Assembly: GCA_964396785.1 (NCBI GenBank)
Contig: CAYNFU010000001.1
Coordinates: 943-64,942 of the forward strand
Length of the DNA: 64,000 nt
Reading direction: 5' to 3'
DNA from: an uncultured Gammaproteobacteria bacterium
GTDB lineage: Bacteria > Patescibacteriota > Microgenomatia > UBA8517
Both the position numbers and the translations under genes were made by a program. Below, in pieces: positions 28,575 to 49,004 of the stretch. The notes beneath the pieces were generated by a model that saw nothing but the letters and a program-made list of their open reading frames with translations, was not told the origin of the DNA and searched no databases. Position 1 is the first letter of the stretch. Each line of letters starts with the position of its first letter.

Positions 28575-29648
28575 TTACATTTTCTCGGGCAGAGGATTTA
28601 TTAGGTGAGTCTTAATAGTCTCTATAAGAAAAATCCACATATCTAAAAGTATGACTGTGCCTGCCAATACTATTTCATATTTTAAATAATTGTCGGAAAG
28701 GTAGAAAAAAGAAATTATAGTGATTAAATTAACCATAATAACGATAAAAACCAGGGGCAATTTGTTAATCAATCTTACTATTTTACTTTCCTCTTTATTA
28801 ATAGCGAAGTTTAACATTTTTGCAGCCACAAGCGAGAATGCTAAAACTATTGCCAGCATAAAGAAAAGAAACGATAGACTAAATGAACGATTAAATAGTA
28901 CAATCGCCGTAAGAAAAAGGGCCGACATCGGCATTAATAAAGAATTCGGTTTGATAAGAACGATTGTCTTTAGATTTCGCCACCCGTCTGTAAATCTCGA
29001 CAATCTTGGGGGACTACCCCTCTTGTCTTTATAAAGACTAATAGGCACTTCAGCATACCTTCCTTTATTTAAGGATGTCTTTATTAGTAGCTCACTGTCC
29101 CATTCCATACCAGAGTTTCTCATGTGCAACTTTTCATAAAAGGATTTTTTAACAAGTCTCATTCCAGAGTTCGAATCGGTGGTGTTAATCCCATAGAGCT
29201 TGCGAATTAAAAAAGTAAGTATTGGGGTCCCAATATATCGATTCAAAAATGGCATTGCACCGGGGTGGATTTTCCCTTTGAATCGAGAACCTAACACCAA
29301 GTCGTATTTTTTTACCAAGAATTTCATAAACTTCCCCAGCTCATAAAAATCATAACTCATGTCAGCATCCGCAAAAAAAACATAAACACCACTCGAATTA
29401 AGTATTCCCCAGTGAAGTGCCGCCCCGTATCCCCTGATAGGAACTTTGACCAATTTTGCCTTTTTAGTAGATCTCACTATCTTTAGCGAATTGTCCGTGC
29501 TTCCATTATCGGCAACTATCAATTCGAAAGAATCATTAAAATATCTTTCGGCAGCAGTGTATGCCGCAAAAATCGCATCACGAATAGTCTTTTCTTCATT
29601 AAGGCAAGGAATTACAATTGACAAAATTATTTTTTTACGTTTTCTCAT
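28575..29648 (-). CDS. GT2 polyprenyl-phosphate sugar synthase (GtrB / ArnC / DPM1-like) with C-terminal TM helices
   Basis: 357 aa. ILSIVIPCLNEEKTIRDAIFAAYTAAERYFNDSFELIVADNGSTDNS is a GT2 domain of approx. 230 aa. It is followed by 3-4 hydrophobic helices (LFLTAIVLFNRSF...FMLAIVLAFSLVAAKMLNF...). Confidence 0.8.
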   Translation of the reverse strand: MRKRKKIILSIVIPCLNEEKTIRDAIFAAYTAAERYFNDSFELIVADNGSTDNSLKIVRSTKKAKLVKVPIRGYGAALHWGILNSSGVYVFFADADMSYDFYELGKFMKFLVKKYDLVLGSRFKGKIHPGAMPFLNRYIGTPILTFLIRKLYGINTTDSNSGMRLVKKSFYEKLHMRNSGMEWDSELLIKTSLNKGRYAEVPISLYKDKRGSPPRLSRFTDGWRNLKTIVLIKPNSLLMPMSALFLTAIVLFNRSFSLSFLFFMLAIVLAFSLVAAKMLNFAINKEESKIVRLINKLPLVFIVIMVNLITIISFFYLSDNYLKYEIVLAGTVILLDMWIFLIETIKTHLINPLPEKM

Positions 29649-30993
29649 TAATGAATTTTTCTACTCCCTTTCTTTTCTTATTCGATACTCTCGTAGTAAT
29701 AATGTTCAATAAGATAAAACCAGTTACGGGCACCAAATAGGAAGAGGACCTTGCCAATGATCTACCTACTGTTTCCCACCAATCTGTTTGGAATGATACA
29801 AAATATAGTTGAAATGTGTAGAGGGCTAGACTGAGAAGCACAATAAAGAATAGGAATAGTATCCCCCCGTTTCTTCTTATTTTATGCCAACCAAAAAGAA
29901 CCGCCGCCAAAGTAGTTAGGTGAATTAAAAGGGGAATTCCCCAAGACCTTAGAATGATGACTAAGACATTTACCCAGGACCCGGTAAAAATACCCACGAG
30001 GAGTTCAGTTAGATATAAGCCTGAAAAATTAAGGACACTCGGATTTTCACCTACAACCTTAATAAAATACGACCAAGTGAAATACTCCAATAAACAAAAA
30101 ACAGCTAATAAAATTCCGGGGATTAATACGTTTTTAATAGCCTTTCCTATGAGTGAAGTAATGATAAAGGAAAGTAGAACCACCAGCCAAACAGGTTCAA
30201 GAAATCTTATCCAAATTGAGGTGGAAATAAAAAAGGTCCCGAAAAGTAATTCCCAAAGCTTTTTGTTTCTTAGATAGTTAAAAATCAGGAATATTCCAAA
30301 AACCAGATGTAGTGTATAAGGTAGATTTGTGTATTCCCTTATTGAGATTAAAAAAATGACGTCGTTTGAGGCAACAATCAATGAAAGGAAGGCTGCAGTT
30401 TTCTCACCAAGACTCTTACGTGTCAAAAAGAATACTCCAATAGTAAGAAGCAGTAAGTTTAAAGAATAATATATTCCTACAGGAAACTTGCTTACGTCAA
30501 ATACCTTTTCCCAAAAAAAGTGTGCGATAGATGTATATGGAGGATAGAGAAGATAGTAATACTTATTTAAGTTATCAAAACGAGAAAGAGCTGGCATATC
30601 GGAAAACTTCATCCCAGCCTCTAAAAACTTTGCCCTTGCATCATAGAGGGCAACTGCATCCCAATGAATAGAGTCTTTATTAAGATTCAGATATACCGAG
30701 GTTCCCACGACGACAAAAGTTAAAAGAAGAAAAACCAAAGCCAGAATGTTTATTTTGAAAAAACCCTTTTTAAGCCACTTTATTTGTCCTATATGCAAAG
30801 TTTTAACAAACGCGTAAATACCAAAAATTGCGAGTCCCGCAAGGCTAACTAATTCAACCATTCCAGGAACACTCGAGGCATACTCATCTTCCAGATTAAA
30901 AAAGAATAACTTTTTAAAAAGCATTAAAAATACGATAAGTGTTGAGATAACAAATTGAGGCATACTAGAAATATACTTGATAAACCGAGCCAT
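29635..30993 (-). CDS. Polytopic membrane protein, unknown family
   Basis: 452 aa with about 12 TM helices. No recognised motif. It is co-directional in the operon. Confidence 0.55.
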   Translation of the reverse strand: MARFIKYISSMPQFVISTLIVFLMLFKKLFFFNLEDEYASSVPGMVELVSLAGLAIFGIYAFVKTLHIGQIKWLKKGFFKINILALVFLLLTFVVVGTSVYLNLNKDSIHWDAVALYDARAKFLEAGMKFSDMPALSRFDNLNKYYYLLYPPYTSIAHFFWEKVFDVSKFPVGIYYSLNLLLLTIGVFFLTRKSLGEKTAAFLSLIVASNDVIFLISIREYTNLPYTLHLVFGIFLIFNYLRNKKLWELLFGTFFISTSIWIRFLEPVWLVVLLSFIITSLIGKAIKNVLIPGILLAVFCLLEYFTWSYFIKVVGENPSVLNFSGLYLTELLVGIFTGSWVNVLVIILRSWGIPLLIHLTTLAAVLFGWHKIRRNGGILFLFFIVLLSLALYTFQLYFVSFQTDWWETVGRSLARSSSYLVPVTGFILLNIITTRVSNKKRKGVEKFINEKT

Positions 30994-31948
30994 CCTCAGT
31001 TTTCAAAACCGCATCTAGTCTTTCGTATTTAATTTCCGTTTTTTCGTCAAAAATAATCACTCTACTCTCTTCATGAAAGATAGGCCAATGAGTTGAATCA
31101 GACAAAGGGTCAATTTCAACAAAGTAGGCTACCTTTATTTGCTCTGCCAGCTCCTGATTATCCAAAAGTGCCCCACTTATTAACTCTCTTGGAAAGAGGA
31201 AATATCTCAAAACCGGCTGATTGCCTATTGCAGGCCATTTTTCTCCTTGAGGAGGGTGAATTACTTTTACATCTTCCGGTGAGTTTTCTTTCAAAAGAAC
31301 AATATATTTATAATGAACACCCATCCTACTTTCGAAACCCCCTTTTACTTCTCCCAGTAATCGAGTCCAGCTGACAAATGGAGAAAGAGAGAGAATTATT
31401 AATCCAGAAAGGCCGGTCAAAGCCAATAAAAATGAATATCCTTCCCTTCTTGCTAGCCCACTGGCCCCTTGACTTTTTTGTCTCAAAAGCTTGAAGGATC
31501 GATTGTAAACCAGCATAAATAAAAATACGAAAAGCTCAAGAGCCGTAACAAAGGACATGAGCTCCAATTGAGGAACAGTTAGTCCAAAGTGCCCATAAAG
31601 AAAATTGGGGTAATTCCTCTCCTCTAGAGCTAGAAGAAATCTTGCTAATGTTAAAAAGGTCACACTGGAAATAGAAAGAAAAATCAAAGTTTTTCTTTGG
31701 AGCACTGATATTTTTTTATCAATAAATCTCTTGAACCAAAGAACTATTATCAAAAGCACGATAGAAGAAATAAAAAAAGGAAAATAGTATAAAAGTGTAG
31801 AAAGACCAATTATTCGGAAGTTTTGAAAGTCTTTATTTACAACAAAATAAAGACGAAAGACACTTAAAAGAGGGGACAACAAAAAGGTGAGCCAAAGTAG
31901 CACCAAAAGGACATGACTATAAATAATACGTAGTATTTTTTCTTTCAT
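30965..31948 (-). CDS. Membrane protein with an approx. 130 aa C-terminal soluble domain, unknown family
   Basis: 327 aa with about 6 TM helices, followed by a hydrophilic domain (ESRMGVHYKYIVLLKENSPEDVKVIHPPQGEKWPAIGNQPV...). Confidence 0.5.
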   Translation of the reverse strand: MKEKILRIIYSHVLLVLLWLTFLLSPLLSVFRLYFVVNKDFQNFRIIGLSTLLYYFPFFISSIVLLIIVLWFKRFIDKKISVLQRKTLIFLSISSVTFLTLARFLLALEERNYPNFLYGHFGLTVPQLELMSFVTALELFVFLFMLVYNRSFKLLRQKSQGASGLARREGYSFLLALTGLSGLIILSLSPFVSWTRLLGEVKGGFESRMGVHYKYIVLLKENSPEDVKVIHPPQGEKWPAIGNQPVLRYFLFPRELISGALLDNQELAEQIKVAYFVEIDPLSDSTHWPIFHEESRVIIFDEKTEIKYERLDAVLKTEDGSVYQVYF

Positions 31949-33528
31949 ATTTCAAGGCTACGAATCTCCCAATAATATCTAAACCCTTCGTTTAAAAAGG
32001 GGGGATTTTTCAAGGTTTGAATTGGTCTGGACCCAAAATTATTCCTAAAGGCGTTCGGATCGATCCGAGAAACATGATAGGCTTTCGAATCTAAAAGAGT
32101 ATAGTTTGAGTTTGAAAGACTTTCTAAATTTATAACCGACTCCAAAGATGACCTGGTAAATAAATCTCCTTCAGAAGGGGGTGGTAGTTTAAGTCTCTCT
32201 ACCTCGGGTTTACCTCCATGGAAATAATTAAGATGCATTGGAATCTCATAAACTACTTCCCAGTTGTCAATTGTTTCCTTGGCGTTTAAATAAACGGTGC
32301 CCTCCTTAACTTTTGCTATTGCGTCGACCTGGTCTTTTTCAAACTGAATAAATGTTGCAAACCAGTTTCTGTAATTTAAAGTTCTTGCGATATTTAAGGG
32401 TGCTTCCACGAAAAAAAGGTTACAAAGGGTAAAAATTGCTAGAAACTGAAAAGCAACTTTCTTCCAACCTGAAAAAACACTCATTTTTTCAATCTCATTC
32501 ATCACTCTTGAAATTAGTATCGTTACCAGGATAGAAAATGCATAAATCGATGGAAGAAGATACCTATCTAGTACATATCTCCATGGAAATAGTATTACTG
32601 TAAATGAGACAAAAACCAAAAGCCAATAAACAAAATGGGATCCTGCTATCCCCTGCCGGAACTTTTTAATAATCAAGGTAAAAGGAGCTGCAATAAGAAA
32701 AATTTCAAAGAAGGGACTTAAGGAATTTGAAAGAAGTTTTAAGAAATTTAGGCCATTTTGAAGAATAAACAATAGGTTAAGCCTGTAATTACTTGAGTAG
32801 TTAGGTCCTGTCTGAGCTCCACCGAGGAACATTTTTACTAAAATAAATATTGCCCCCGATACAATTAACATGGTAATTAAAGCTTTTTTATGAAGTACTT
32901 TTGGAAATAGTATTCCCAAAATAAACACCGCAGGCAAGATCGCAATTGATGCTTCCTTAAGCAAAAGCAAAAAAATTAGAGTCAGACTCAAAATGATAAT
33001 TGCAGGTCCTCTCAACTTTTTAGATATATGCTCAAGATTCAAAAAAAGTAAGGAAAATATTCCCAAAAATAGCACCATATATGGCTCGATAGGGCCTAGC
33101 CTTATCATATTTTCGCTAAAAGAATAATTGGTGACAAAAAGGGCGGCACCCAAGGTAACGGCAATAGCATGGGATCTTGCCGAGAGCGCCGACAAGACAA
33201 AAAGTATTACCAGGGCAAGTCCAAATCCGTAAATCCTGAGTTCGTGTTGAAATTGTGCGTCAACTCTTGGAGGCTGATATAAAATACCTTGAATGAGCCA
33301 GTAACCAGTTCTTGATAAACCAACGTCTGGAAGTACTTCGATAATCTGAGACTTAAAACTAGTACATTTACGCTCGACTAAACATTCTCTTACGTAAATC
33401 CCATACTTAATTGATTGACCGTCGTCAATAAGAGAGAAGTTTTTGAAAATTTGGGGGCTCAAAACATACCTTGCATAAAAAAGATAAGCTAACGCTACAA
33501 AAATCAAGAAAAATATTTTTTTACCCAT
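31945..33528 (-). CDS. Polytopic membrane protein, unknown family. Paralog of the protein at 35013..36623.
   Basis: 527 aa. It shares NFSLIDDGQ, ATNYSFSENMIRLGPIEPY and a C-terminal EIPMHLNYFHGGKPEVERLKLPP region with the 35013..36623 protein (NFSLVDDGQ / ATNYSLSENIIRLGTNEPY / EVPIHLKFFYGIEPNLEILKETIP). Confidence 0.6.
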   Translation of the reverse strand: MGKKIFFLIFVALAYLFYARYVLSPQIFKNFSLIDDGQSIKYGIYVRECLVERKCTSFKSQIIEVLPDVGLSRTGYWLIQGILYQPPRVDAQFQHELRIYGFGLALVILFVLSALSARSHAIAVTLGAALFVTNYSFSENMIRLGPIEPYMVLFLGIFSLLFLNLEHISKKLRGPAIIILSLTLIFLLLLKEASIAILPAVFILGILFPKVLHKKALITMLIVSGAIFILVKMFLGGAQTGPNYSSNYRLNLLFILQNGLNFLKLLSNSLSPFFEIFLIAAPFTLIIKKFRQGIAGSHFVYWLLVFVSFTVILFPWRYVLDRYLLPSIYAFSILVTILISRVMNEIEKMSVFSGWKKVAFQFLAIFTLCNLFFVEAPLNIARTLNYRNWFATFIQFEKDQVDAIAKVKEGTVYLNAKETIDNWEVVYEIPMHLNYFHGGKPEVERLKLPPPSEGDLFTRSSLESVINLESLSNSNYTLLDSKAYHVSRIDPNAFRNNFGSRPIQTLKNPPFLNEGFRYYWEIRSLEI

Positions 33529-33552
33529 GGCTACCTAATTATGCAACAGGTC

Positions 33553-34197
33553 TTACTCCCTTGCGTATTGGCGCATGTTGCTTTTAGCCTTTTTCTTTTC
33601 GAGAACAAAAATTCCCAATCTGAATGGGAATCCTGCACAAATGAGTCTGAATTTTTCAAAATGCAAAACATTAAATTTTCTATTTTTGAATACATTAAAC
33701 CACCCCGCCTCAGTTTTATTGCTATGGGGGTGTCCCTTGAATTCCCAATTAACAATACTGTCTTCTATTAATGTAAGCCATTTTTCAACAGGGCTCTCGA
33801 AAAGATCTTCCATAATGATTATCCTCTTTGACGATACACGAATAGCCTCGTCTAAAACTGATAAAGGTTTCTTACAATGATGCAAAACTGCAATAAGTAA
33901 AGATGTATCAAAACTTTCATCGGGAAACGGGAGTTTCTTACCATCGTAAATTATCACTGGTATCGACTTGCACAAAGGATTTAAGCGAACGTCAATACAG
34001 GTAATATTCTTATTTTTCGCCTCCATAATCCCCTTAGCGACAAAACCTGTTCCGGTTCCAATGTCCAAGATTTTTTCTTTTTTGTCTATAAATGGAGAAA
34101 TTCTTTTGACAATTTGCTTTGCCCGCTTTTTATATTCATCCTCCATAATCTTGCGGGTGAAGGAAATTTTTTCTAAGAGGTAAAATGGAGAAGACAT
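33553..34197 (-). CDS. Class I SAM-dependent methyltransferase
   Basis: 214 aa. ILDIGTGTGFVAKGI (motif I), FDTSLLIAVLHHCKKPLSVLDEAIRVSSKRIIIME. Confidence 0.8.
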   Translation of the reverse strand: MSSPFYLLEKISFTRKIMEDEYKKRAKQIVKRISPFIDKKEKILDIGTGTGFVAKGIMEAKNKNITCIDVRLNPLCKSIPVIIYDGKKLPFPDESFDTSLLIAVLHHCKKPLSVLDEAIRVSSKRIIIMEDLFESPVEKWLTLIEDSIVNWEFKGHPHSNKTEAGWFNVFKNRKFNVLHFEKFRLICAGFPFRLGIFVLEKKKAKSNMRQYARE

Positions 34198-34224
34198 TTT
34201 TTAAAACCTTTTCTAATTCAATCT

Positions 34225-34911
34225 TTAGTTATTTTTTTCTTTGGTCACCAGATATCCCTGATGAATCATTAGATATTTCAAAAAACTAAATTTTTCGAAT
34301 TGATCAAAAAATGGGTTGGGTAAGATAAAGTTAAAATGATATTTCTTGGTAACTTTTCCTCTTCTTTCTAGTGCTCGCCTTATTTCCCAAGGATAGTACC
34401 AATATTCGTTTCCGTGATATGGCCTCACTCCGATACTGCATAGTAAGGTATATAAAGGCTTGAATAATTTATTTGGAGTAGTTAAGACAAGATAGCCGCC
34501 TTTTTTAAGCACCCGGAAAAGCTCACTTAATACCTTGTTCTGTTTGTTGACGTGCTCGATAACTTCAGTGCATAAAACTAAGTCGAAAGAATTATCTTTA
34601 TAAGGTAATTTTTGAGCGGGAGCTACAACAAACTTACCTCTTGGATATCTTTTGCTACTAATATTTATTAGCCTTTTTCCGATATCAATCCCGTGTACCT
34701 CTGCACCAAGTTTACCTGCTCGAAAAGCAAAATAACCTAGACCACATCCAACATCTAAAAATTTTTTTCCTTTTAGGGGAATTTCATCGAACAAAGTTTT
34801 ATAAACAACTCTCAATCTTTTATTTGTTTCGGGTTTATGGATCTTTTCTTCCCAATCTTCAGCAATACTGTCATAAAAAAGTTCTTTATTTTTGGTGCCA
34901 TTAATTTTCAT
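34225..34911 (-). CDS. Class I SAM-dependent methyltransferase
   Basis: 228 aa. FLDVGCGLGYFAFRAGKLGAEVHGIDIGKRLI, FDLVLCTEVIEHVNKQNKVLSELFRVLKKGGYLVLTTPN. Confidence 0.85.
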   Translation of the reverse strand: MKINGTKNKELFYDSIAEDWEEKIHKPETNKRLRVVYKTLFDEIPLKGKKFLDVGCGLGYFAFRAGKLGAEVHGIDIGKRLINISSKRYPRGKFVVAPAQKLPYKDNSFDLVLCTEVIEHVNKQNKVLSELFRVLKKGGYLVLTTPNKLFKPLYTLLCSIGVRPYHGNEYWYYPWEIRRALERRGKVTKKYHFNFILPNPFFDQFEKFSFLKYLMIHQGYLVTKEKNN

Positions 34912-35012
34912 TTTTTATGCTTAAACAATTTTTGAGCACGACTAACTATACCAGAAGGTATGGTCAAGAAACTACTGACAGATATTTCGCAGTAAAATAA
35001 CTGAAAATCTTA
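34912..35012 (-). promoter_or_regulatory. Candidate extended -10 TGGTATAGT (minus strand, 34945..34953) in the 101-bp gap upstream of the methyltransferase gene at 34225..34911
   Basis: The minus-strand sequence reads ...TTGACCATACCTTCTGGTATAGTTAGTCG...(approx. 30 nt)...ATG. It shares the GGTATA[AG]T core with the elements at 24926 and 38144. Confidence 0.35.
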
Positions 35013-36623
35013 TTAATCAACCTTTCCTATTTCCCAGTAGTACTCCTGATAATCACTGACAGGCGGGTTAATTATAGTAGAGATTGGCTGAGAAAAGAAT
35101 CTGCTACGAAATTCTAAAGGATCTATCCAGAGAACAAGATATTTTTTACTCTCTAAAACTTCATAACCTACTTTTTTCAGCTCATCCCCAGAATATTTTT
35201 TGTCAAAAGTAACCTGAGAAAAAATATATCCCTTACTCGGGATTGTTTCTTTGAGAATTTCTAAGTTAGGTTCAATTCCATAGAAAAATTTTAAATGAAT
35301 TGGAACCTCATAGAGCCACTCCCAATTGTTTATATTTTCTTTTGCATTAACAAATATTTTTTCTCCATTGTATTTTGCTATTAGCCTAACCTGTTCCCTT
35401 TCGAATTGTGTAACCAGAAGAAACCGGCTCTGATAGTTTACAGTTTTGGCCAGATTTAAAGGAAAACCCCTCAAAAAAAGTCCCAATACAATAACTATTA
35501 AAGCAGCATTGAAAAAAACACGCATTTTCTCATTTTTTACTTGGAAGAAATATTTCCGAAAGATTTTTACAGCTTGGTCAAACAAAAACATTGTAAAAAT
35601 AATTATTCCGAAAACCGCTACAAGCTGATATCTCTCCAAAACAAATTCCCACGGAAAAAGGATCACTGTAAAAAATAATGCAAAAAAACCCCAAAAATAC
35701 ACTCTGCCAACCTTAAATTCCACCCTCGCTGTTTTATTAAGCATTAAGAGTACTAACAAAATAAGGGATATCTTAAAAAATGGGGATAGAGAATTTGAAA
35801 GAAGCACCAAGTTTTCCTTTGATTTTGCAATAATTGCTCCCAAGCTAGTTACGTAGTTACTCGTATAGAGTGGTATCTCTGTTGAAATAGTCGAAGACAA
35901 AAATCTAGTAATAGTTATTCCTGCAAGAAGAATAATAAAAGGTATGCCAGCTAATAAACTTGCCCTTTTAAAAGCTTTTTTGCCAAAAACCAAGATTTCA
36001 GTAATGAAAATTGTCGGCAAAATGGCGATATTACTCTCCTTTATTAAAACAGTAATGGTTAGAATAAAAATCGGGACCCAAGGGATTTTAGTTCTTCTAT
36101 CTCTTCTCACCAAAGTGTGAAGATAAATAAGAGAAAATGCTGCAAGAAACAATATCTGGTATGGCTCATTTGTACCAAGACGAATTATGTTCTCACTAAG
36201 AGAATAATTAGTTGCAAATAGGAGTGCTCCGCCGATAACGAATACGGAGCTCACACTCAAATCGAGTAGGGCTAGTGACAGTAGTATTACTGCGGCATAT
36301 CCGACCACATATACTCTAAAAATGTGGTGCAGCTGAGCATTATTTCGAAACACCTCATAGACAATATTATTTATAAGCCAATAAGTCGGCCTGAACCGAC
36401 TTGTCCCGAACTCAAAAGTCTGGTCTATAAATTTGGAGCATTTTAATCTTAAAACACAATCTTCTAAATATGAGGAGCTTTGAATTAAAACTTGCCCGTC
36501 ATCTACCAGAGAAAAATTGGTGAGCTTCCATGGTTTAAGAAAAATCGATGCGTATAAGAAATAAAAAACTGTAATAATCATCAACACCAGAAGGTTATTT
36601 TTTACTAGAGGTGGAATTCTCAC
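35013..36623 (-). CDS. Polytopic membrane protein, unknown family. Paralog of the protein at 31945..33528.
   Basis: 536 aa. See the shared motifs listed for 31945..33528. It has about 12 TM helices and a C-terminal soluble domain. Confidence 0.6.
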   Translation of the reverse strand: MRIPPLVKNNLLVLMIITVFYFLYASIFLKPWKLTNFSLVDDGQVLIQSSSYLEDCVLRLKCSKFIDQTFEFGTSRFRPTYWLINNIVYEVFRNNAQLHHIFRVYVVGYAAVILLSLALLDLSVSSVFVIGGALLFATNYSLSENIIRLGTNEPYQILFLAAFSLIYLHTLVRRDRRTKIPWVPIFILTITVLIKESNIAILPTIFITEILVFGKKAFKRASLLAGIPFIILLAGITITRFLSSTISTEIPLYTSNYVTSLGAIIAKSKENLVLLSNSLSPFFKISLILLVLLMLNKTARVEFKVGRVYFWGFFALFFTVILFPWEFVLERYQLVAVFGIIIFTMFLFDQAVKIFRKYFFQVKNEKMRVFFNAALIVIVLGLFLRGFPLNLAKTVNYQSRFLLVTQFEREQVRLIAKYNGEKIFVNAKENINNWEWLYEVPIHLKFFYGIEPNLEILKETIPSKGYIFSQVTFDKKYSGDELKKVGYEVLESKKYLVLWIDPLEFRSRFFSQPISTIINPPVSDYQEYYWEIGKVD

Positions 36624-37378
36624 TTTTTTCTAAGAAATATTTGTACAGACCCTCCCAGGTATTTTACAAGAGGAATGAATTTAAGGTTATCGAATATTTT
36701 ATCAACTATCTTAAGAATACTTAGTGGTATAAATCTCGCAGGATATATAAACTCAGACATTGAAATATTGATAACTTTAAAGTCTTTAAAAACACTATTT
36801 AAACCTAGGGGATTAACTGCCCATTCGTCTTTCGAATCACCAACTAAACTTTTTAGCTTCCTATTAGACTTTATTATATAAACGACTGGGTTAAGGATGT
36901 TGGGTTCATAAAAAAATGCTAACCCCCTTTTTTTTAGAACTCTCAATAGCTCATTTTTAAATCGAGGTATGTCTAAATGATGTAAAACGTAGAATCCGAA
37001 GACTACGTCAAAAAAGTCAGATTTGAACCCGCTACTATATGCACTTCGGGCAAGAAACCGAACATTTTTGACTCCTGCGCATTTCTTCTTTGCCACCTGC
37101 AAAATCTTCTCAGAAATATCTATGGCAATAATTTTTGACTTGGGAAAGTAATTACATATTCTTTTGGTATACTCTCCTGTACCACACCCAATTTCAAGAA
37201 TTGATATCGGTTTGTTCCCTAAACTTCTTCGAATTGAACTGACAAATTCCAAAACTTTCTTGTCAATTTTGTATTTTGTAAAGTCACCTTCATACCCATA
37301 ATTTGTGTCGTAAGCCAGAGCGGCTTCATTAAAATGTTCTTTTTCGCGAGCTTCCAGTTTTTTAATATTTAATTTCAT
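36620..37378 (-). CDS. Class I SAM-dependent methyltransferase
   Basis: 252 aa. ILEIGCGTGEYTKRI, FDVVFGFYVLHHLDIPRFKNELLRVLKKRGLAFFYEPN. Confidence 0.85.
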   Translation of the reverse strand: MKLNIKKLEAREKEHFNEAALAYDTNYGYEGDFTKYKIDKKVLEFVSSIRRSLGNKPISILEIGCGTGEYTKRICNYFPKSKIIAIDISEKILQVAKKKCAGVKNVRFLARSAYSSGFKSDFFDVVFGFYVLHHLDIPRFKNELLRVLKKRGLAFFYEPNILNPVVYIIKSNRKLKSLVGDSKDEWAVNPLGLNSVFKDFKVINISMSEFIYPARFIPLSILKIVDKIFDNLKFIPLVKYLGGSVQIFLRKK

Positions 37379-38136
37379 GGGACGCTTAGCTTTGCAACAA
37401 CTGAAATTCCTAACGGATATTTAAAATATTTGACCATTCGAACCTCGCTGGTAAATAAAAACTTGAGTAATTCATTTATAAGACTCACGTGGGCGACGTC
37501 GAAATTAACACTATTATCATAGTTGCTTAAACTCCTTAAGGGTTTAAGTCTGCTCAAAAGCCTCATTGAAATTATTGGTAGGGAAAAAAGGAAATTGAAA
37601 TAACTAATAAAATCTACTTTCAATCCTGCTTTTTTCGCCAACATTCTAAACCTTCTTCTTGTGTATCTTCTCTCGTGTCCTTGATTAGTATCGTGCCCAG
37701 ACCAAATAAAGGGAAGTGCCGGGCTTGTAATAATAATTTTCCCTTTCTTCCTCAAAACTCTTGCCGCCTCTTTAACAACCCCAGCATCATCTTCAATATG
37801 TTCAATCACATCAAGAATTAACACTACGTCAAAGAAACCATTCTTGAAAGGTAAATTTAAAGCGTTAGCCTTAAAAATATTTTTGTGTCCCCTTTTTTTT
37901 GAAAACTGAATCGCTTTTTGAGAAGTATCAATGCCATAAAGTTCGGCTTTTGGAAATGAAGTTTTAAGGAATGAAAGAGTCTCACCAGTGCCACAACCAA
38001 CATCTAAAATTCTCTTATATTCCAATCCGCCAAGTAGTCCTTTAATTAGTTCTCGCCTACCTTCCCACCACCAATGAATTTTTTCAATCTCGTTGAATTT
38101 CTCAAGAAGGAAGTCGTCCATGCTCTTTGTTCTCAT
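37375..38136 (-). CDS. Class I SAM-dependent methyltransferase
   Basis: 253 aa. ILDVGCGTGETLSFL, FDVVLILDVIEHIEDDAGVVKEAARVLRKKGKIIITSP. Confidence 0.85.
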   Translation of the reverse strand: MRTKSMDDFLLEKFNEIEKIHWWWEGRRELIKGLLGGLEYKRILDVGCGTGETLSFLKTSFPKAELYGIDTSQKAIQFSKKRGHKNIFKANALNLPFKNGFFDVVLILDVIEHIEDDAGVVKEAARVLRKKGKIIITSPALPFIWSGHDTNQGHERRYTRRRFRMLAKKAGLKVDFISYFNFLFSLPIISMRLLSRLKPLRSLSNYDNSVNFDVAHVSLINELLKFLFTSEVRMVKYFKYPLGISVVAKLSVP

Positions 38137-38181: not shown

Positions 38182-39666
38182 TTAATAACCTAAAAATTGT
38201 CTTGATTTAAGTCTGATGCCTCCTTCTTGAGAACCTTCTAAACTTGAATAACTTGCGCTAATTTCTCCTTTCCAAAACACTTCAAAATAATTCTGGTCGG
38301 ATAAAACTACTTTAAGCAATGCCGTAGGGCTCCAGGGCAAATCTCTATCTTCTTGAGTATCGTAAAAAGCAACACTCTTAACACCCGATACTAATTCCTT
38401 GTTTTTCAATAAGTAGTCATGCACATTTTTGGCAGTATAACCTCCTCTGGTAATCCAATGTGTTTTCTTTGTGAGACCAATTGTCATAAAAGAAAGTATA
38501 AGCCAGATAATCATAAATAGGGATGCAACAAAATACTGTCTTTTAGCGGTAAGGAGATAGGAAATAATGATTACTATTCCTATTAGGGGTAAGGTCAGAT
38601 AAAAGGTGAACTTGTGAAGGGGAAGAAAAAGAACAGGAAGCAAAGTAACAAAAAACCAGGCTATACAAAAGATAAACAAATTTAATAAATTGCGCTTTGT
38701 AAACAAATTCTTGATGTTCCTAAAAACTTTGTAGAGAAGAATTATTACTGCTCCGGAGAATAAAATAAAAATCGGAATTATCTCCTTTGACCAGAATTTA
38801 AAGAGATTGGGATTAAACTTTAGACCAGGTCCTACAAAATCCACGAGCATCTCAGGCAAATTGAATGCCCAGAGGCCGTACCAACCAAAGGTATTAAAAA
38901 GTCTTCTGATTGAGAAGTCCCAAAGGTAACTGTCTCCCGTGGCAAAGCCGTAATAGCTTACGCGCATATAGAGATAGACTGCAAGAATTAAGAGAAAGGG
39001 TATGAGTGAGGTCAGGAGTTCACCAAGCTTCAATTTATTTTTCTTTTGTTTTTTCATTAACCAATAAATAGGGATAAATATCATGGGCAAAACAACGGCG
39101 GTTTCCTTTGAAAGTAAGCTCAAAATAAATGTCATAATACTAAAAACTAAATGCTTTTTATCAGACTTCTCTAGAAATTCAATAAAAAATAATACCGAAA
39201 GAATGAAAAACAACGTCATCCCTAACTCCTGAAACGTGGCTAAATAATAAAGATGGCCGAAGTGGGAAGCACTTGTTGCATACAAAAACGCAGCAATTAA
39301 TGGGATTTTATCCGTTGTCCGAGGTTCGAAGTTAGACAATAACATTTTGGTCAATCTGTAGGTAAGATAGGTAACTGCAAAAAATACAATAAAAGAAATT
39401 ATATGAAGGCCGAGTGGATAAAAGTTAAAAAGCTTCCAAGCCAGAAAATAAAAAACTTGAGTGGTTAAAGGCCGATACATTCCCAAACCGTCTGGTCCCT
39501 GGGTCAGATTAAAGAAGTTCAAAAATTCTTTGAGAGAGCCTGCTTGGGAAATTTTGAGTAAGAAAAAATCGTCATGGGTGTAAAAAGTAAACAGTGAAGG
39601 AAAATAAAGAACAAAGGAAATGAAAAGGATAATAAATAGGTATTTAGTCGACCGAAAAAATTTCAT
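38182..39666 (-). CDS. Polytopic membrane protein, unknown family (possible GT-C-like)
   Basis: 494 aa with about 12 TM helices. The first loop is FYTHDDFFLLKISQAGSLKEF. The short C-terminal soluble domain is GEISASYSSLEGSQEGGIRLKSRQ. Confidence 0.5.
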   Translation of the reverse strand: MKFFRSTKYLFIILFISFVLYFPSLFTFYTHDDFFLLKISQAGSLKEFLNFFNLTQGPDGLGMYRPLTTQVFYFLAWKLFNFYPLGLHIISFIVFFAVTYLTYRLTKMLLSNFEPRTTDKIPLIAAFLYATSASHFGHLYYLATFQELGMTLFFILSVLFFIEFLEKSDKKHLVFSIMTFILSLLSKETAVVLPMIFIPIYWLMKKQKKNKLKLGELLTSLIPFLLILAVYLYMRVSYYGFATGDSYLWDFSIRRLFNTFGWYGLWAFNLPEMLVDFVGPGLKFNPNLFKFWSKEIIPIFILFSGAVIILLYKVFRNIKNLFTKRNLLNLFIFCIAWFFVTLLPVLFLPLHKFTFYLTLPLIGIVIIISYLLTAKRQYFVASLFMIIWLILSFMTIGLTKKTHWITRGGYTAKNVHDYLLKNKELVSGVKSVAFYDTQEDRDLPWSPTALLKVVLSDQNYFEVFWKGEISASYSSLEGSQEGGIRLKSRQFLGY

Positions 39667-40454: not shown

Positions 40455-40796
40455 TTACTCGTTCTTCTTTTTTAATCCCTTAAGGGCTTCTTTTCTAATA
40501 AATCTTTCGAATTTCTTTTCTATTCTTCTAGTCCTTACATAGGCTAATGCTACCATGGTAATCACCAAAACTAGCCCTCCCATTATCATTAGATCAAGAA
40601 GTCTTGAGATAAAAAACGTTTGAGCAATGCCCCGCAGTGTATCAGGAAAAAGAACCGTATAAAGGGCACTTCCCCATGCTCCCATCCAAATGGTTATCTC
40701 AATTTTATTTAGTTCTTTTCTCCTGAAGTTCACATAAGCTAAGTAGACCATGACCATGGCAAAAATTATCGCAACAAATTGTAGGCCTAATATCAT
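40455..40796 (-). CDS. Small membrane protein (2-3 TM) sandwiched between GT2 genes. DUF2304/GtrA-like candidate.
   Basis: 113 aa. MILGLQFVAIIFAMVMVYLAYVNF ... LLDLMIMGGLVLVITMVALAYV. It ends in a basic tail (RRIEKKFERFIRKEALKGLKKKNE). Its position directly downstream of a GT2 gene is typical of small accessory membrane proteins that partner polyprenyl-P-sugar synthases. Confidence 0.45.
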   Translation of the reverse strand: MILGLQFVAIIFAMVMVYLAYVNFRRKELNKIEITIWMGAWGSALYTVLFPDTLRGIAQTFFISRLLDLMIMGGLVLVITMVALAYVRTRRIEKKFERFIRKEALKGLKKKNE

Positions 40797-41440
40797 CTTA
40801 ATTTAAACTGAATAATTTCAAATATAATTCCAAACCCCTGTTCAATGCTTAAACCCTTAAACTTATCATAGTATAGTGTAGCCACGGGCACCTCGCAATT
40901 TTTGAGATGGTGTTTGCCAGTTAAAGCTACGATTTCAGTTTCGACACTATAACCCGAAGAATACCATCTAATTTTCTCGAAAGACCTCCTGGTAAAAGCT
41001 TTAAACCCACAGAGAATATCTTGGGCATTAATCCCATAAAGAATACTTACAATAGTAGTTATCAATTTGTTACCCAAGAGTCTAACCAGGGGGATTTTCC
41101 CAAAATTCCTTACCCCAAAAACAACGTCGCATATTTTAAGGGCTTTAACAAACTTCGGAAGATCGCTAGCCTTGTGCTGTCCATCTGAGTCCATAAGAAT
41201 AACTGCTTCCGCCCCAAGCTTAAATGCAGCCAGGCAACCCGTTTTTAATGCAGCCCCCTTACCAAGGTTAATAGAATGCCTTAGAACGTAGGGAGTATAT
41301 CTTTTAGCAATTTGCGAGGTTTTATCCTTCGACCCATCGTCTATTACAATAAACGGAAATTTCTGATCTTTAACATCTGATAACACTTTCCCAATTCTTT
41401 TCTCTTCATTAAATGCCGGAATTACAATAAATATTTTCAT
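40793..41440 (-). CDS. Glycosyltransferase family 2 (DPM1/GtrB-like soluble domain)
   Basis: 215 aa. MKIFIVIPAFNEEKRIGKVLSDV...FIVIDDGSKDKT ... VILMDSDGQH (DxD-Q motif typical of DPM1-like GT2). Confidence 0.8.
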   Translation of the reverse strand: MKIFIVIPAFNEEKRIGKVLSDVKDQKFPFIVIDDGSKDKTSQIAKRYTPYVLRHSINLGKGAALKTGCLAAFKLGAEAVILMDSDGQHKASDLPKFVKALKICDVVFGVRNFGKIPLVRLLGNKLITTIVSILYGINAQDILCGFKAFTRRSFEKIRWYSSGYSVETEIVALTGKHHLKNCEVPVATLYYDKFKGLSIEQGFGIIFEIIQFKLR

Positions 41441-42195
41441 TTCTTTAATCTAAAAAATAAGCCTACTGTGTCAATAAACATTTTTATAGAAGCACTAAAA
41501 ATCTTAGAAGAAGTGTCAAGGGTTGAAGACTTCTCCGCCTTAACCATTTTGACAAATATCGGGGCTTCATGAATTTTCTTATAACCCAAAATATTCGCCT
41601 GCATCAGTACCTCTATATCGAAAGCGAATCCGTTTATATGAAGACGGGGAAGTATTTTTTTAACTACACTTCCTTTGAAGATTTTTACTCCAGCTTGGGT
41701 ATCTGTCACCTTTGGCCTAAAAAGAATCTTAACCAGGAAATAATAAATAACTGAAATAATTTGCCTAAGGGTAGGATATTCAACTTTTGAGTTTGGGTGT
41801 CTTTTTGAACCAACAACAATATCAGCGTTTTCCTTTTTTTGAACCTCAAGAAGCTTAACTATACTTTCTGGATCTATCTCAAGTCCCGCGTCAATAAAAC
41901 CTACCAATTTCCCCCGAGCTTTCATCATTCCATATCTCACCGCATATCCCTTGCCCCTATTATTTTTATAACTCAAAACTTTGATTTTTCGATTTTTCTC
42001 AGTAAGTTCTTTTACCAAACTAAAAGTATCGTCAACTTTTCCGTCAACTACACAAATTATTTCGTAGCTATTCGTAAGCCTTCCCAGTACTAAATCAACT
42101 TCCTTAACACTTTTTACAATAAAGCTCTCGGCTTTATATGCAGGAATAATGATAGACAAGTGGGGCTTATGTAATAATCCCTTTCCCATGCCCAA
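41437..42195 (-). CDS. Glycosyltransferase family 2 (DPM1-like)
   Basis: 252 aa. LSIIIPAYKAESFIVKSVKEV...YEIICVVDGKVDDT ... GFIDAGLE. Confidence 0.8.
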   Translation of the reverse strand: MGMGKGLLHKPHLSIIIPAYKAESFIVKSVKEVDLVLGRLTNSYEIICVVDGKVDDTFSLVKELTEKNRKIKVLSYKNNRGKGYAVRYGMMKARGKLVGFIDAGLEIDPESIVKLLEVQKKENADIVVGSKRHPNSKVEYPTLRQIISVIYYFLVKILFRPKVTDTQAGVKIFKGSVVKKILPRLHINGFAFDIEVLMQANILGYKKIHEAPIFVKMVKAEKSSTLDTSSKIFSASIKMFIDTVGLFFRLKK

Positions 42196-42205
42196 AGTAT
42201 ATCAC

Positions 42206-43354
42206 TTAGGAAACCCAATAGCCTCGGCTGAAGAGAGCACAAGCGAGAGCAAGAAGGACTCCCGAAATGCAATATACTGCTATTTTTAACCCCCTCGGCT
42301 TTTTATTGAGCCAAATCGCCGAAAGTAAAAAAGCCGGAAAAAGAATAAGAACATAACGAGGAAAAGATGAAAAGCTTCCTGAAAGAGGGGGGATTAAATA
42401 TCCTACAGCAAAAAACAAAGAGTAACTAAGTCTTAATTTAAAAAACGACCATATTCCAAGAATCCCAAATATAATTCCAGAAGCAATCTCTAGATATGTG
42501 GTGAACACTATCGGAAAATAATTGTAATTAAGGTTTGGCAAAACCTTGAAAAAATATCTATAAAAAACTTGGGGTAAAAGAATTATCTCGCTTGAGCGCT
42601 GCTCGCCAAAAATTGAAACGTTGTGAAAAAATTCCAAAGGGTCTCCAACTGTTACATATAAATAGTACATATAAAGGATTAGTCCCATTGGAACAAGTGC
42701 TAATGATATGAGTGGTACTACCCAACTGCCCTTCCTATGCTTAAGAAACTTCCAAACTTCATAGCCAATAGCCGGAATTAAAGCAAGAGCTGTAATTCTT
42801 GTTGCTGTTGCAAAAGCTCCAAGAACTCCTGCAAAAATCCAACTGCCTTTTCTTGCAAAGAAAAAAGACCAAATAATCAGCGCAAATACCAACCCCTCAG
42901 TATAGAAGGCACCGAAATAAAATGACGTCGGAAAAAAGATTAGTAAAAGTATAGTCATTTTTGCAATATTCTCTTTATAATCCAGACGAATTAATTTCCA
43001 CAAGCCAAAAAGACCAATTAAAAACGCTAGGTTCGATACCAATAATCCCGATATAGCTATTGTTATGAATTCGCTACTTACCAAAAATGCAATCAGTCTG
43101 GTGAGAATTGGGAGGAGGGGAAAAAAGAAATAAGTCAGAGGCTGATAGCCTAGATGTGCAATTGCCGCATAGTGTTCTCCATCAAAGTTCAAAAAACTCC
43201 AAAAATAAGGATTTTGTAAATAGTTTGTTAGTCCCCCACCGAGGAAATCTTTTTGGAGAGGAAAAAGGGCAATCCCCAAAAATACAATCAAAAAAAGTGC
43301 TATCCTCCATAAGATAAAGGAGGTAAGAATGAATTTACTTCCCTCAAGTCTCAT
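42206..43354 (-). CDS. Polytopic membrane protein, putative GT-C mannosyltransferase of the PIG-V/GT76-like type
   Basis: 382 aa with about 10 TM helices. The first loop is WSFLNFDGEHYAAIAHLGYQP, which resembles the W-x-x-F-D-x-x-H-[FY]-x-x-I-A-x-x-G-Y motif of Mannosyl_trans2 (PIG-V) proteins. It lies immediately downstream of two DPM1-like GT2 genes. Confidence 0.5.
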   Translation of the reverse strand: MRLEGSKFILTSFILWRIALFLIVFLGIALFPLQKDFLGGGLTNYLQNPYFWSFLNFDGEHYAAIAHLGYQPLTYFFFPLLPILTRLIAFLVSSEFITIAISGLLVSNLAFLIGLFGLWKLIRLDYKENIAKMTILLLIFFPTSFYFGAFYTEGLVFALIIWSFFFARKGSWIFAGVLGAFATATRITALALIPAIGYEVWKFLKHRKGSWVVPLISLALVPMGLILYMYYLYVTVGDPLEFFHNVSIFGEQRSSEIILLPQVFYRYFFKVLPNLNYNYFPIVFTTYLEIASGIIFGILGIWSFFKLRLSYSLFFAVGYLIPPLSGSFSSFPRYVLILFPAFLLSAIWLNKKPRGLKIAVYCISGVLLALACALFSRGYWVS

Positions 43355-45252: not shown

Positions 45253-46530
45253 TTATCTCGATTGTATCACCATATTTGCTACTTTTTCTCCAAGCTCAAC
45301 TGCATAATTGGTCCCTCTATCCCAAGGATAAACCTGCTGGATATTTGCAAGATATAGTCCCTCAATAGGAGTTATCATTCCTGGCATGAATTTTGAGTAA
45401 TTTAAAGGAATTACCGGTTGGGCGAAGGGGGCCATAAACTTATTGGCTTCTATTACCCAATTTTGCCTAAACTCCGGGTTTATCTTCTGCAAATAGGGTA
45501 AAAATAATTCAAGAAGTTCTCCCGGCTCTTTGGAGTAGAAAGGATGGTCGTGGGGAAGGTAGTTTCCAACATAGATAATGTGATCACCTCCGTAATACCT
45601 CTTATCCATAAAATTGGTGTGCTCCACAACCGCCAAAAAAGGAAACTTTTCTTCACCTACATTTAGCCAATATGTGCCGTTTTTAAGAAACTCTCTCTTT
45701 AGAATAAGCATCAGGTTAACCGCCCCAATTGCTTTAAAAGAAAGAAGTTTCTGAAGATAATCATCAGGAAAGCCCTGCACGATTTTTGCAAAAGGGGCGT
45801 AGGGAAGCGTACAGATAACTTTGTCAAATTCGAATCTTCCTTTATCGGTCAAAATTTCCAGTTTAGAATCCACCTTGGTTATTTTTTCAACCCTGGTATT
45901 GTATAAGATCCTTCCTTTATTCTGCCTGATTAATGCGTCAAGCCGCATCGCAAATTTTAAAAATCCTCCCTCGGGGTATCCAAGATTTGAGCTTCTTTTT
46001 TTAATTCTTGCCCAAAACCACGAGGCTGGTATCTGGTCTGCAAAATGACTGAATTTTTTTTCAAAAAGTGGCCTCCATAGCGTATCCCAGGCTTTCTTGC
46101 CATTATATTTTGTCAGAAACTCCTTCGCGGTTACTTTTTCAAGAGGTTTCCAAAAAGGGGTAAGCTTTAAATAAGCCAAAATTGCCCCCGTGCGAATTCT
46201 ATCGGGAAGTGACAGCTTATCAAATAGCATAAGGCTTTGAGGGGAGTCTATCTGGTAGATTGAGCCGTCAATGAAGGTCGAAGTTTTAGTCGGCAAATAA
46301 ATATATTTCTGTCCCGTCTCTTTAGCCAAATTTCGAATTGCGAAGTCCGAATAAAACCAATGATGATAATGCTTCTCCAAGCTCCATTTCCAACCCTTCT
46401 TAGTAAAGCCCACTGCAAGTCCGCCGGGATATCCTTCCCCTTCAAAGATAGTTACGTCAAGTCCTTGCTTAGTTAGTCTATAGGCTGCGGCCAACCCAGT
46501 GAATCCCGCACCGATTATTCCAATATTCAT
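45253..46530 (-). CDS. FAD/NAD(P)-binding oxidoreductase (amine-oxidase / protoporphyrinogen-oxidase-like fold)
   Basis: 425 aa. N-terminal MNIGIIGAGFTGLAAAYRLTKQGLDVTIFEGEGYPGGLA is the GxGxxG dinucleotide-binding fold followed by the GG motif of flavin amine oxidases. The substrate is unknown. Confidence 0.7.
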   Translation of the reverse strand: MNIGIIGAGFTGLAAAYRLTKQGLDVTIFEGEGYPGGLAVGFTKKGWKWSLEKHYHHWFYSDFAIRNLAKETGQKYIYLPTKTSTFIDGSIYQIDSPQSLMLFDKLSLPDRIRTGAILAYLKLTPFWKPLEKVTAKEFLTKYNGKKAWDTLWRPLFEKKFSHFADQIPASWFWARIKKRSSNLGYPEGGFLKFAMRLDALIRQNKGRILYNTRVEKITKVDSKLEILTDKGRFEFDKVICTLPYAPFAKIVQGFPDDYLQKLLSFKAIGAVNLMLILKREFLKNGTYWLNVGEEKFPFLAVVEHTNFMDKRYYGGDHIIYVGNYLPHDHPFYSKEPGELLELFLPYLQKINPEFRQNWVIEANKFMAPFAQPVIPLNYSKFMPGMITPIEGLYLANIQQVYPWDRGTNYAVELGEKVANMVIQSR

Positions 46531-48149: not shown

Positions 48150-49004
48150 CTATTTGACTAACAATAAACCCAAAAAACCCAAAAAGGATCCTGCAATCTT
48201 CCAAATAATTCTCTTTCTTTCATTAAGAAAAAGAATCGCAAAAATCACAGTTACAACAACACCTATGGAATTTAAAGAAATTACTTGTGATGAATTTTCC
48301 GCAATCTGCAACGCATAGAAAAACAAAATTGCAGACGCTGCATAGAATAAACTTAAAGTCGCCATTCTAACAAATGTCCCCTTCACTAGAAAAACTTTCA
48401 TTTTTTTAATACTGCCGGAGTAAAATACTAGAACCGACAATGCTGGAAGGACAAATGCAAGGAATGAGTAAGGGAAAACATCAAAGTGCCCAAGGAGAAA
48501 TCTGTCGTTAACCACAGAGAACCCGAAAAACATTGCAGCCAGAAGAGAATAAATTTCTTTAAAAGAGAATTTAATTTTCCTTTTTTCCAAAGATACAATT
48601 ACTGCAGCAGAAAGGATAAGCAACGTACCTATCCATTGTGAAACTGTAAGACTTTCTTTCATTAAAAGCGAAAAAGCCAAAATTGCAAAAATTGCTCTGG
48701 AACTAAAGATAACAGAAAATTTTGACGCTTCGGTTCTTTTTAGTGCTTTAAACACAAAAATATTACCAAGTGCATAAAGAACTATCATTATTAAAAAGTT
48801 TAATATCAAAGGCTTGAAATCAGGGTACTTCATTGTGGTAAATAAATATCCAAAAATCCCTATCATAAGGCCTGTTAAAAGTTGGAAGAAAGAAGCATAA
48901 GCCACCGGATCACTATCCTTCTCCCTGACCAGTATTCTCTGCAGTAATACAGAGATAGAATAACAAATAACGCTCAAGATAATTAGTATTTGCCAAGTCA
49001 CCAT
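48150..49004 (-). CDS. EamA / DMT-superfamily transporter (10 TM, two EamA repeats)
   Basis: 284 aa. The two approx. 140 aa halves each carry an EamA-type helix pattern (…ALGNIFVFKALKRTEASKFSVIFSSRAIFAILAFSLL… / …LFYAASAILFFYALQIAENSSQVISLNSIGVVVTVIFAILFL…). It lies inside the GT-C paralog array. Confidence 0.7.
   Translation of the reverse strand: MVTWQILIILSVICYSISVLLQRILVREKDSDPVAYASFFQLLTGLMIGIFGYLFTTMKYPDFKPLILNFLIMIVLYALGNIFVFKALKRTEASKFSVIFSSRAIFAILAFSLLMKESLTVSQWIGTLLILSAAVIVSLEKRKIKFSFKEIYSLLAAMFFGFSVVNDRFLLGHFDVFPYSFLAFVLPALSVLVFYSGSIKKMKVFLVKGTFVRMATLSLFYAASAILFFYALQIAENSSQVISLNSIGVVVTVIFAILFLNERKRIIWKIAGSFLGFLGLLLVK

Follow-up and report, generated by a model that had tools for sequence, protein, structure and literature searches.

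Paralogous membrane proteins encoded among methyltransferase genes in a Patescibacteria glycosylation island: a probable divergent subfamily of GT-C glycosyltransferases

Introduction

The three-component paradigm of extracytoplasmic glycosylation comprises a polyprenyl-phosphate-sugar synthase, a flippase and a glycosyltransferase of the GT-C fold class (PMC11127046; bioRxiv 10.1101/180810). Described examples are GtrA/GtrB/Gtr*, GacI-GacJ-GacK-GacL of S. pyogenes, PpgS-Rv3632-Rv3779 and ORF15/13/12 with GT136 (PMC11127046). In the Gac system, the small DUF2304 membrane protein GacJ forms a complex with the GlcNAc-P-undecaprenol synthase GacI and stimulates it (bioRxiv 10.1101/180810). In the present study, we analyzed a 64-kb stretch of DNA (the window; contig CAYNFU010000001.1 of GenBank assembly GCA_964396785.1), which was identical in sequence to a scaffold from a groundwater metagenome, and focused on two of its membrane proteins, X_A and X_B, and on the S-adenosylmethionine (SAM) methyltransferase (MT) genes interleaved with them. 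Sequence comparison and structural modeling make it very probable that X_A and X_B are inverting-type GT-C glycosyltransferases, most likely fed by lipid-phosphate-linked sugars, each being the first enzyme of a gene module, MT-X-Y-Z, in which Y and Z follow X. The GT-C fold class is known; what is new is the module, as a variant of the extracytoplasmic glycosylation scheme. Like the three-component systems, the locus encodes synthase-type GT2 proteins, a DUF2304 protein and GT-C proteins. The common logic would be that a sugar is donated outside the membrane from a lipid monophosphate, and natural fusions of GT2 to GT-C proteins support this pairing of donor and transferase. The X module differs from those systems in its one or two SAM methyltransferases of fixed position, in the genes Y, Z and W that follow, in having no GtrA-type flippase and in its host, Patescibacteria.

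Two further systems are comparable. As in our locus, the surface-glycan loci of WsaE (Geobacillus S-layer glycan) and of WbdD-type capping couple a cytoplasmic SAM methyltransferase, physically or genetically, with a glycosyltransferase of the GT2 type. In those systems, the GT2 domains lengthen the chain and methylation stops its growth ahead of ABC export; the GT2 of the X module, by contrast, is similar to synthases of polyprenyl-phosphate sugars and occurs in other fusions with a GT-C, which speaks for the donor branch. The mycobacterial assembly of arabinan and mannan (Emb/Aft, PimE/Mpt) likewise employs several consecutive GT-Cs fed by polyprenyl-phosphate sugars, and a decaprenyl-phosphate sugar is modified on its carrier by DprE1/E2 (decaprenyl-phosphate-ribose, DPR, to decaprenyl-phosphate-arabinose, DPA) before GT-C use. 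The sequence relation of the X module to this system lies only at the level of the fold, and the change proposed here is methylation, not epimerization. A limited literature search found nothing directly relevant on GT-C enzymes of the Candidate Phyla Radiation (CPR).

Paralogy and conservation of X_A and X_B

Both membrane proteins are encoded where an earlier note on this DNA, made from the sequence alone, had placed them, and both genes lie on the minus strand:

31945..33528, minus strand: X_A, membrane protein of 527 aa with 11 predicted transmembrane (TM) helices and a C-terminal extracytoplasmic alpha/beta domain (residues 411-525)
33421..33426, minus strand: codons of the acidic pair D35-D36 of X_A, putatively catalytic and located in extracytoplasmic loop 1 (EL1)
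35013..36623, minus strand: X_B, paralog of X_A with 536 aa and the same architecture; its GTG start overlaps the stop codon of the methyltransferase gene MT3
36498..36503, minus strand: codons of D41-D42 of X_B, the equivalent of the X_A pair according to the 27-member alignment A1

Pairwise alignment by BLASTP bore out the paralogy that the earlier note had claimed, the two proteins being 39% identical from end to end (E 2e-101), and the three motif blocks quoted there were present and conserved in 27 family members. The positions invariant in A1 were D35, D36, G37, C49, C55, R73, H95, R98, E139, N140, R143, G145, E148, P149, E192, W302, P315, W316, R322, Y323, N385, E397, E424, P430 and H432, every one of which was kept in X_B. 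They belong to a family with the motifs GRxRPxYW, SENxxRLGxxEP, KE and PWxxxLxRY, and with ExPxHL in the C-terminal domain. In a wider alignment of 80 sequences (A2), D35, E192, W316, R322, Y323 and E424 were still invariant, D35 down to about 17% identity, and D36 was conserved in at least 90% of the sequences.

The family is rare. Only 31 relatives came out of a word-indexed search over 5.8 billion proteins, where the family amounts to about 30 clusters at 90% identity. They had neither Pfam domains nor informative names; the source annotation was "hypothetical protein" or absent. A HMMER profile, run against 1.84 billion representatives, recovered 633 relatives, consisting of a core family with full-length matches down to about E-116 and a second tier from E-53. 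The members from resolved genomes belonged to Candidatus Woesebacteria, Pacebacteria and other Patescibacteria metagenome-assembled genomes (MAGs). One locus with a full Patescibacteria-type module (L010, CAZYNM010000014.1) was labeled "uncultured Pseudomonadales bacterium" and is probably a mis-binned or mislabeled MAG contig.

Predicted fold, topology and putative active site

The AlphaFold2 model of X_A, built on A1, was confident (predicted local distance difference test 88, predicted template-modeling score 0.90). A Foldseek search with this model returned GT-C enzymes only among the top 30 (STT3A with a TM-score of 0.54, DPY19, ArnT and PglB), and transporters reached a probability of at most 0.15 and a TM-score of about 0.1. 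X thus has a polytopic core within the range of 7 to 13 TM helices and the helix arrangement of the GT-C-A group. The helices of the model together with the alignment gave an 11-TM topology with the N-terminus inside and the C-terminus outside; the density of lysine plus arginine was 0.23 in inner loops and 0.09 in outer loops, and the net charge was positive in every predicted inner loop.

According to this predicted topology, the outer side carries the DD pair, all remaining invariant polar positions and the C-terminal alpha/beta domain of about 115 aa with the ExPxHL motif. The two invariant cysteines of EL1 also face outward and likely form a disulfide. The earlier note had put the DD pair in the first extracytoplasmic loop, about 40 aa after the first TM helix. 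The positive-inside rule and the 11-TM topology agree with the loop, and they place the pair outside rather than in the cytoplasm or the membrane; the distance was corrected to about 12 residues past the end of TM1. X therefore carries conserved acidic residues (D35/D36) in the first extracytoplasmic loop after TM1, the position expected for GT-C-A enzymes.

Relation to named families

The nearest named group is the PMT_2/ArnT-like GT-C-A proteins (PF13231; GT39/GT83 type; Pmt1/2 6p2r, Pmt4 9e61, ArnT 5f15). X_A and X_B did not reach the gathering threshold of PMT_2 (PF13231) or PMT (PF02366). The second-tier relatives P0073, P0076 and P0164 passed the Pfam PMT_2 gathering threshold, and PMT_2 was matched by 20 of the 80 members of A2. 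We then compared A2 with A3, which aligns the eleven PMT/PMT_2 paralogs of the window itself, and hhalign joined the two with 98.8% probability (E 6.7e-17, about 190 columns). This alignment set D35-D36 on the D-E of the paralog at 46536-48149, which is the loop-1 motif of PMT-type enzymes. The nearest relative of the X family inside the window was a GT-C gene beyond X_B, whose ortholog profile matched the X-family profile with 99.4% probability (E 1e-21):

38182..39666, minus strand: GT-C with a weak PMT_2 match (25.7 bits) and an "HDD" loop-1 motif, directly 5' of MT4

The narrow X-family profile gave non-significant results against single neighboring PMT_2 proteins, and the link emerged only after both sides had been widened to alignments. 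Because these profiles join X to PMT_2-positive proteins and to 38182-39666, X is, on sequence grounds, a divergent unnamed subfamily within the known GT-C-A (PMT/ArnT/STT3-like) group and no new fold. The earlier note saw no resemblance to the GT39-like paralogs; pairwise and Pfam comparisons were indeed empty, but the profiles reveal the link. Its suggestion of a distinct and possibly novel GT-C-like family is right as to the GT-C character and the unnamed, divergent state, and gives way to a PMT_2-linked subfamily as to novelty. X differs from the PMT_2/ArnT-like proteins in lying below the Pfam and NCBIfam thresholds, in having DDG instead of DE, in lacking the MIR domain, and in its own motif set, its two invariant EL1 cysteines and its family-specific C-terminal domain. 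Its identity to any solved GT-C was about 10%.

Methyltransferases adjoining X

From about 18 kb to 60 kb, every gene of the window is on the minus strand, and many overlap by 4 bp at start and stop codons; therefore, they are probably one long operon-like array. The earlier note correctly saw the methyltransferases interleaved with the membrane paralogs, and because the strand is minus, the order of transcription is MT4-MT3-X_B-MT2-MT1-X_A, with two methyltransferases 5' of each paralog:

33553..34197, minus strand: MT1, class-I SAM methyltransferase directly 5' of X_A (Pfam Methyltransf_11, E 2e-12)
34225..34911, minus strand: MT2, class-I SAM methyltransferase (Methyltransf_11, E 1e-26)
36620..37378, minus strand: MT3, class-I SAM methyltransferase directly 5' of X_B (Methyltransf_11, E 1e-19)
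37375..38136, minus strand: MT4, class-I SAM methyltransferase (Methyltransf_11, E 4e-23)

All four matched Methyltransf_11 and related class-I SAM methyltransferase models of Pfam (E 2e-12 to 1e-26), as the earlier note had read them. Two further methyltransferases named there, at 19724-20512 and 22635-23378, also matched Methyltransf_11, the second only partially (E 2e-7); they had been called upstream and lie downstream in the direction of transcription.

The genomic context was examined in 49 X genes, which formed 37 clusters at 90% identity and came from genome and metagenome contigs; neighbors were identified by phmmer. The upstream side was scored in the 32 clusters with at least 700 bp of 5' sequence and the downstream side in 29 clusters. 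A methyltransferase gene stood immediately 5' of X in 27 of the 32 clusters and within three annotated genes in 30. This direct 5' position, in which codons of the two genes often overlapped, persisted among X proteins with as little as about 30% identity. This co-occurrence, together with the fusion proteins described below, supports the functional link between X and SAM methyltransferases that the earlier note had suggested.

The methyltransferase types followed the type of X. MT1 orthologs preceded X_A in L020 and L021. The MT2 type preceded A-type X genes in many genomes, and its orthologs stood directly 5' of X in L005, L013, L015, L031, L032, L033 and L042. B-type X genes were preceded by the MT4-MT3 pair, with the order MT4-MT3-X_B in L008, L009, L014, L024, L028, L034 and L049. 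The most consistent partner was MT3, an ortholog of which (E 1e-64 to 1e-96) was present in 13 of 13 loci with flanks of 8-10 kb.

A side observation concerned the loop-1 motifs of other GT-Cs. Those next to methyltransferases, at 18247-19719, 23375-24919 and 38182-39666 (all minus strand), had motifs of the DD/SD type (LSDDF, YTHDDF, NFSDG), and the PMT-like paralogs at 46-58 kb, which have no methyltransferase beside them, had the classical DE. In this small sample, the motif type may correlate with methyltransferase adjacency.

Conserved partners downstream of X

The earlier note had missed two conserved partners, Y and Z. Y and then Z followed directly 3' of X in 26 of the 29 clusters, and in the other three another X or an MT-MT-X unit was inserted first, as in the window:

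30965..31948, minus strand: Y, membrane protein of 327 aa with 5 hydrophobic segments and a C-terminal beta-rich domain
29635..30993, minus strand: Z, GT-C-like by a weak PMT_2 match, profile comparison and synteny
24967..26790, minus strand: W, GT-C-like membrane protein of 607 aa that comes after X-Y-Z in A-type loci

Searches with Y detected no relative of known fold. The alignment of Z orthologs matched the PMT-like paralogs with 89.6% probability (E 2e-6), and W matched the X-family profile with 95.2% (E 3e-8; both by hhalign). W was present in L003, L005, L010, L012, L013, L015, L032 and L033. Another gene, 42206-43354 (382 aa), was GT-C-like by profile comparison in the same way as Z and W.

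Two architectures were recognized. The B-type reads MT4-MT3-X_B-Y-Z-Y'-Z', and the A-type reads GT2(c-like)-MT2-X_A-Y-Z-W-GT2-epimerase-MT3. Both were joined in the window and in L020, a 72% identical relative; the window carries two front ends, MT4-MT3-X_B and MT2-MT1-X_A, with a single Y-Z-W back end. A GT2a-DUF2304-GT2b triad and a GT-C of the 38182 type usually stood just 5' of the module. X-Y-Z-(W), with one or two cytoplasmic methyltransferases, a DPMS/GtrB-like GT2 and a GacI/GacJ-like pair before it, is a conserved operon module of Patescibacteria (Woesebacteria, Pacebacteria and similar groups).

GT2 synthases and gene fusions

Polyprenyl-phosphate-sugar synthase-type GT2s are encoded together with the GT-Cs, as in Gtr and Gac systems, namely GT2c, GT2d and the pair of GT2a and DUF2304:

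41437..42195, minus strand: GT2c, soluble DPMS/GtrB/ArnC-like GT2
28575..29648, minus strand: GT2d, DPMS/ArnC-like GT2 with C-terminal TM helices (segments 234-345), between Z and a carbamoyltransferase gene
40455..41440, minus strand: GT2a (215 aa, PF00535) and DUF2304 protein (113 aa, PF10066), a pair of synthase and activator like GacI/GacJ or PpgS/Rv3632

The best PDB matches of GT2c were the Pyrococcus Dol-P-Man synthase 5mlz (2e-15) and GtrB 5ekp (8e-14), with ArnC also matched, which makes GT2c a candidate polyprenyl-phosphate-sugar synthase. GT2d matched ArnC and DPMS at about 2e-6. Among the loci that extended far enough, most kept the GT2a and DUF2304 pair 5' of the X module.

Natural fusions connected these proteins. 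In five second-tier relatives (P0080, P0108, P0140, P0161 and P0168), a GT2 was fused N-terminally to an X-like GT-C, and this GT2 was nearest to the window's GT2c (E 1e-19 to 1e-28). A fusion of a GT2c-like protein with MT3 was encoded directly 5' of X in L011, L036 and L039, and in L016 an MT4 ortholog was followed by a GT2c-X-like fusion and then by a GT2-methyltransferase fusion. The fusions with methyltransferase domains included the following:

L011, 8502-9959: GT2c-like-MT3 fusion, 485 aa
L016, 5740-7059: GT2-methyltransferase fusion, 439 aa
L002, 8425-9999: MT3-second methyltransferase fusion, 524 aa

The fusions and the DUF2304 pair therefore place the GT2 synthase, the methyltransferase and the X-type GT-C in one pathway. 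The sequence check of the methyltransferases found no TM segment, hydrophobic segment or signal sequence. As they lack these features and some are fused to a cytoplasmic GT2, the methyltransferases must, by sequence, be cytoplasmic, and methylation must precede export, acting on a donor or an acceptor precursor that is bound to lipid. The O-methylation of the product that the earlier note had envisaged does not fit with this.

Proposed mechanism and alternatives

X would take a monosaccharide from a polyprenyl-phosphate carrier at the outer face of the membrane and pass it to a glycan of the surface or to a glycoprotein. Lying where EL1 begins, D35/D36, putatively the counterpart of the catalytic aspartate of GT-Cs, would act as the catalytic base or as an acceptor-activating pair, and the site for the donor phosphate and sugar would be lined by R71/R73, E139-N140-R143-E148, K191-E192 and W316-R322-Y323. 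We favor a route in which the methyltransferases O-methylate the GT2-made sugar on the lipid carrier at the cytoplasmic side and X transfers the methylated sugar. Methylation at the donor level is preferred because a single GT2 type occurs in fusions with a methyltransferase as well as in fusions with a GT-C. The full four-component scheme, in which GT2 loads the sugar, the methyltransferase methylates it on the lipid, the product is flipped, X transfers it and Y (a new accessory), Z and W assist, possibly in an X-Y-Z complex, is a tentative and rather unlikely proposal.

Several points count against this interpretation. X_A and X_B had no Pfam or NCBIfam match even at E 0.1, so that no curated glycosyltransferase model covers them, and no PDB chain was meaningfully matched by sequence in searches with X_A and both family profiles. 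The assignment of the DD pair rests on profile alignment and topology. The genomes behind the synteny counts are related, so that the counts do not represent independent events, and methyltransferases also adjoin the GT-C genes at 18247 and 23375, so that adjacency is not specific to X. The module contains no GtrA-type flippase; the only flippase-like genes of the window, a Wzx-like Polysacc_synt gene (21324-22604) and an EamA gene (48150-49004), lie outside it. Finally, a limited literature search found no precedent for a methylated polyprenyl-phosphate monosaccharide.

The alternative that survives best is that the methyltransferases are unrelated to the donor of X and merely co-operonic, capping or decorating a lipid-diphosphate-linked glycan in the cytoplasm in the manner of WsaE or WbdD. 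WsaE is itself a natural methyltransferase-glycosyltransferase fusion that methylates the terminal rhamnose and ends chain growth, and the GT2-methyltransferase fusions of L011 and L016 fit such capping equally well. A conventional polymer pathway is also represented in the window, by GT4 genes, the Wzx-like flippase and a Wzy_C/ligase-like gene (5151-6506), and the methyltransferases beside the GT-Cs at 18247 and 23375 point the same way. However, the GT2 type that is fused to methyltransferases is the GT2c-like type also fused to X-like proteins, GT2c resembles Dol-P-Man/GtrB/ArnC synthases rather than chain-extending GT2s, and the methyltransferase gene keeps its place right before X, frequently with a codon overlap, even where X identities fall to about 30%. 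Capping is thus a serious possibility, although its chance falls short of even.

X could instead be a protein O-glycosyltransferase in the style of PMT/GT39, acting on Ser/Thr of S-layer proteins, pilins or other secreted proteins and not on a polysaccharide, which we regard as rather doubtful. The nearest named group of X includes the GT39 type. The MIR and PMT_4TMC Pfam domains expected of GT39 protein O-mannosyltransferases were not matched in X, and the AlphaFold2 model has a short extracytoplasmic loop 4 and the C-terminal alpha/beta domain in place of the luminal MIR domain that GT39 enzymes have between TM7 and TM8 and of their C-terminal 4-TM module.

It is very improbable that X is a non-transferase with the GT-C fold, such as a scaffold or a flippase-associated or transamidase-like subunit (PIG-U/GAB1, Agl23-type). 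PIG-U did appear in the fold comparison, but catalytic GT-Cs scored far above it; moreover, the invariant acidic pair of loop 1 and the outward charged and aromatic residues form an active-site pattern, and natural fusions to a donor-synthesizing GT2 exist. A Wzy-type polymerase or membrane transporter, the refuting outcomes named in the earlier note, or an O-antigen ligase, readings that the polytopic build, the polysaccharide locus and the missing Pfam match of X might suggest, can practically be dismissed, as the fold searches yielded GT-C only and no Pfam or NCBIfam signature of these proteins was present.

Other genes of the island

The whole window is one glycosylation island with at least 15 GT-C-like genes. 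Matches to PMT/PMT_2 lie at 3692, 9885, 14954, 18247, 23375, 29635, 38182, 46536, 49004, 50681, 54893 and 56575, and X_A, X_B, W and the gene at 42206 are further GT-C-like genes beyond these matches. Many GT2 and GT4 genes accompany them, in addition to the flippase-like and ligase-like genes mentioned above. The EamA/DMT-family transporter (48150-49004, minus strand) sits between two PMT_2 GT-C genes. The ArnE/F-type flippases are related small transporters, and by analogy the EamA protein is a candidate flippase for polyprenyl-phosphate sugars.

Sugar-modifying genes were also observed. A NodU/CmcH-type carbamoyltransferase (26783-28558, minus strand; Carbam_trans_N/C, E 1e-48 and 5e-64) lies between GT2d and W and is also present in L020; its sequence suggests O-carbamoylated sugars in the same glycan. 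A flavin amine-oxidase/NAD_binding_8 protein (45253-46530, minus strand) among the glycosyltransferases could be a sugar-modifying oxidoreductase or mutase. Two homologs of asparagine synthase (AsnB-like glutamine amidotransferases) are encoded at 16381-18267 (plus strand) and 58257-60086 (minus strand). Asparagine-synthase homologs have been listed in S-layer glycan clusters (wsfA, PMC2943079), and by analogy the two AsnB-like proteins may amidate sugars.

Significance

Patescibacteria (CPR) have tiny genomes, yet at least 60 kb is given here to surface glycosylation, with over a dozen paralogous GT-Cs. That a CPR island holds one more branch of GT-Cs will not surprise a specialist; what offers a lead is that methyltransferases are coupled to X, that fusions exist and that the partner Y is an orphan. 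A protein family without a name in any database can now be given a fold and a probable active site, and the MT-X-Y-Z module with its natural fusions makes the assembly of methylated surface sugars a testable biochemical hypothesis. If methylation does take place on the lipid-linked monosaccharide, it would constitute a new donor class for GT-C enzymology; if not, the family would be a further divergent GT-C branch meriting a Pfam or CAZy entry.

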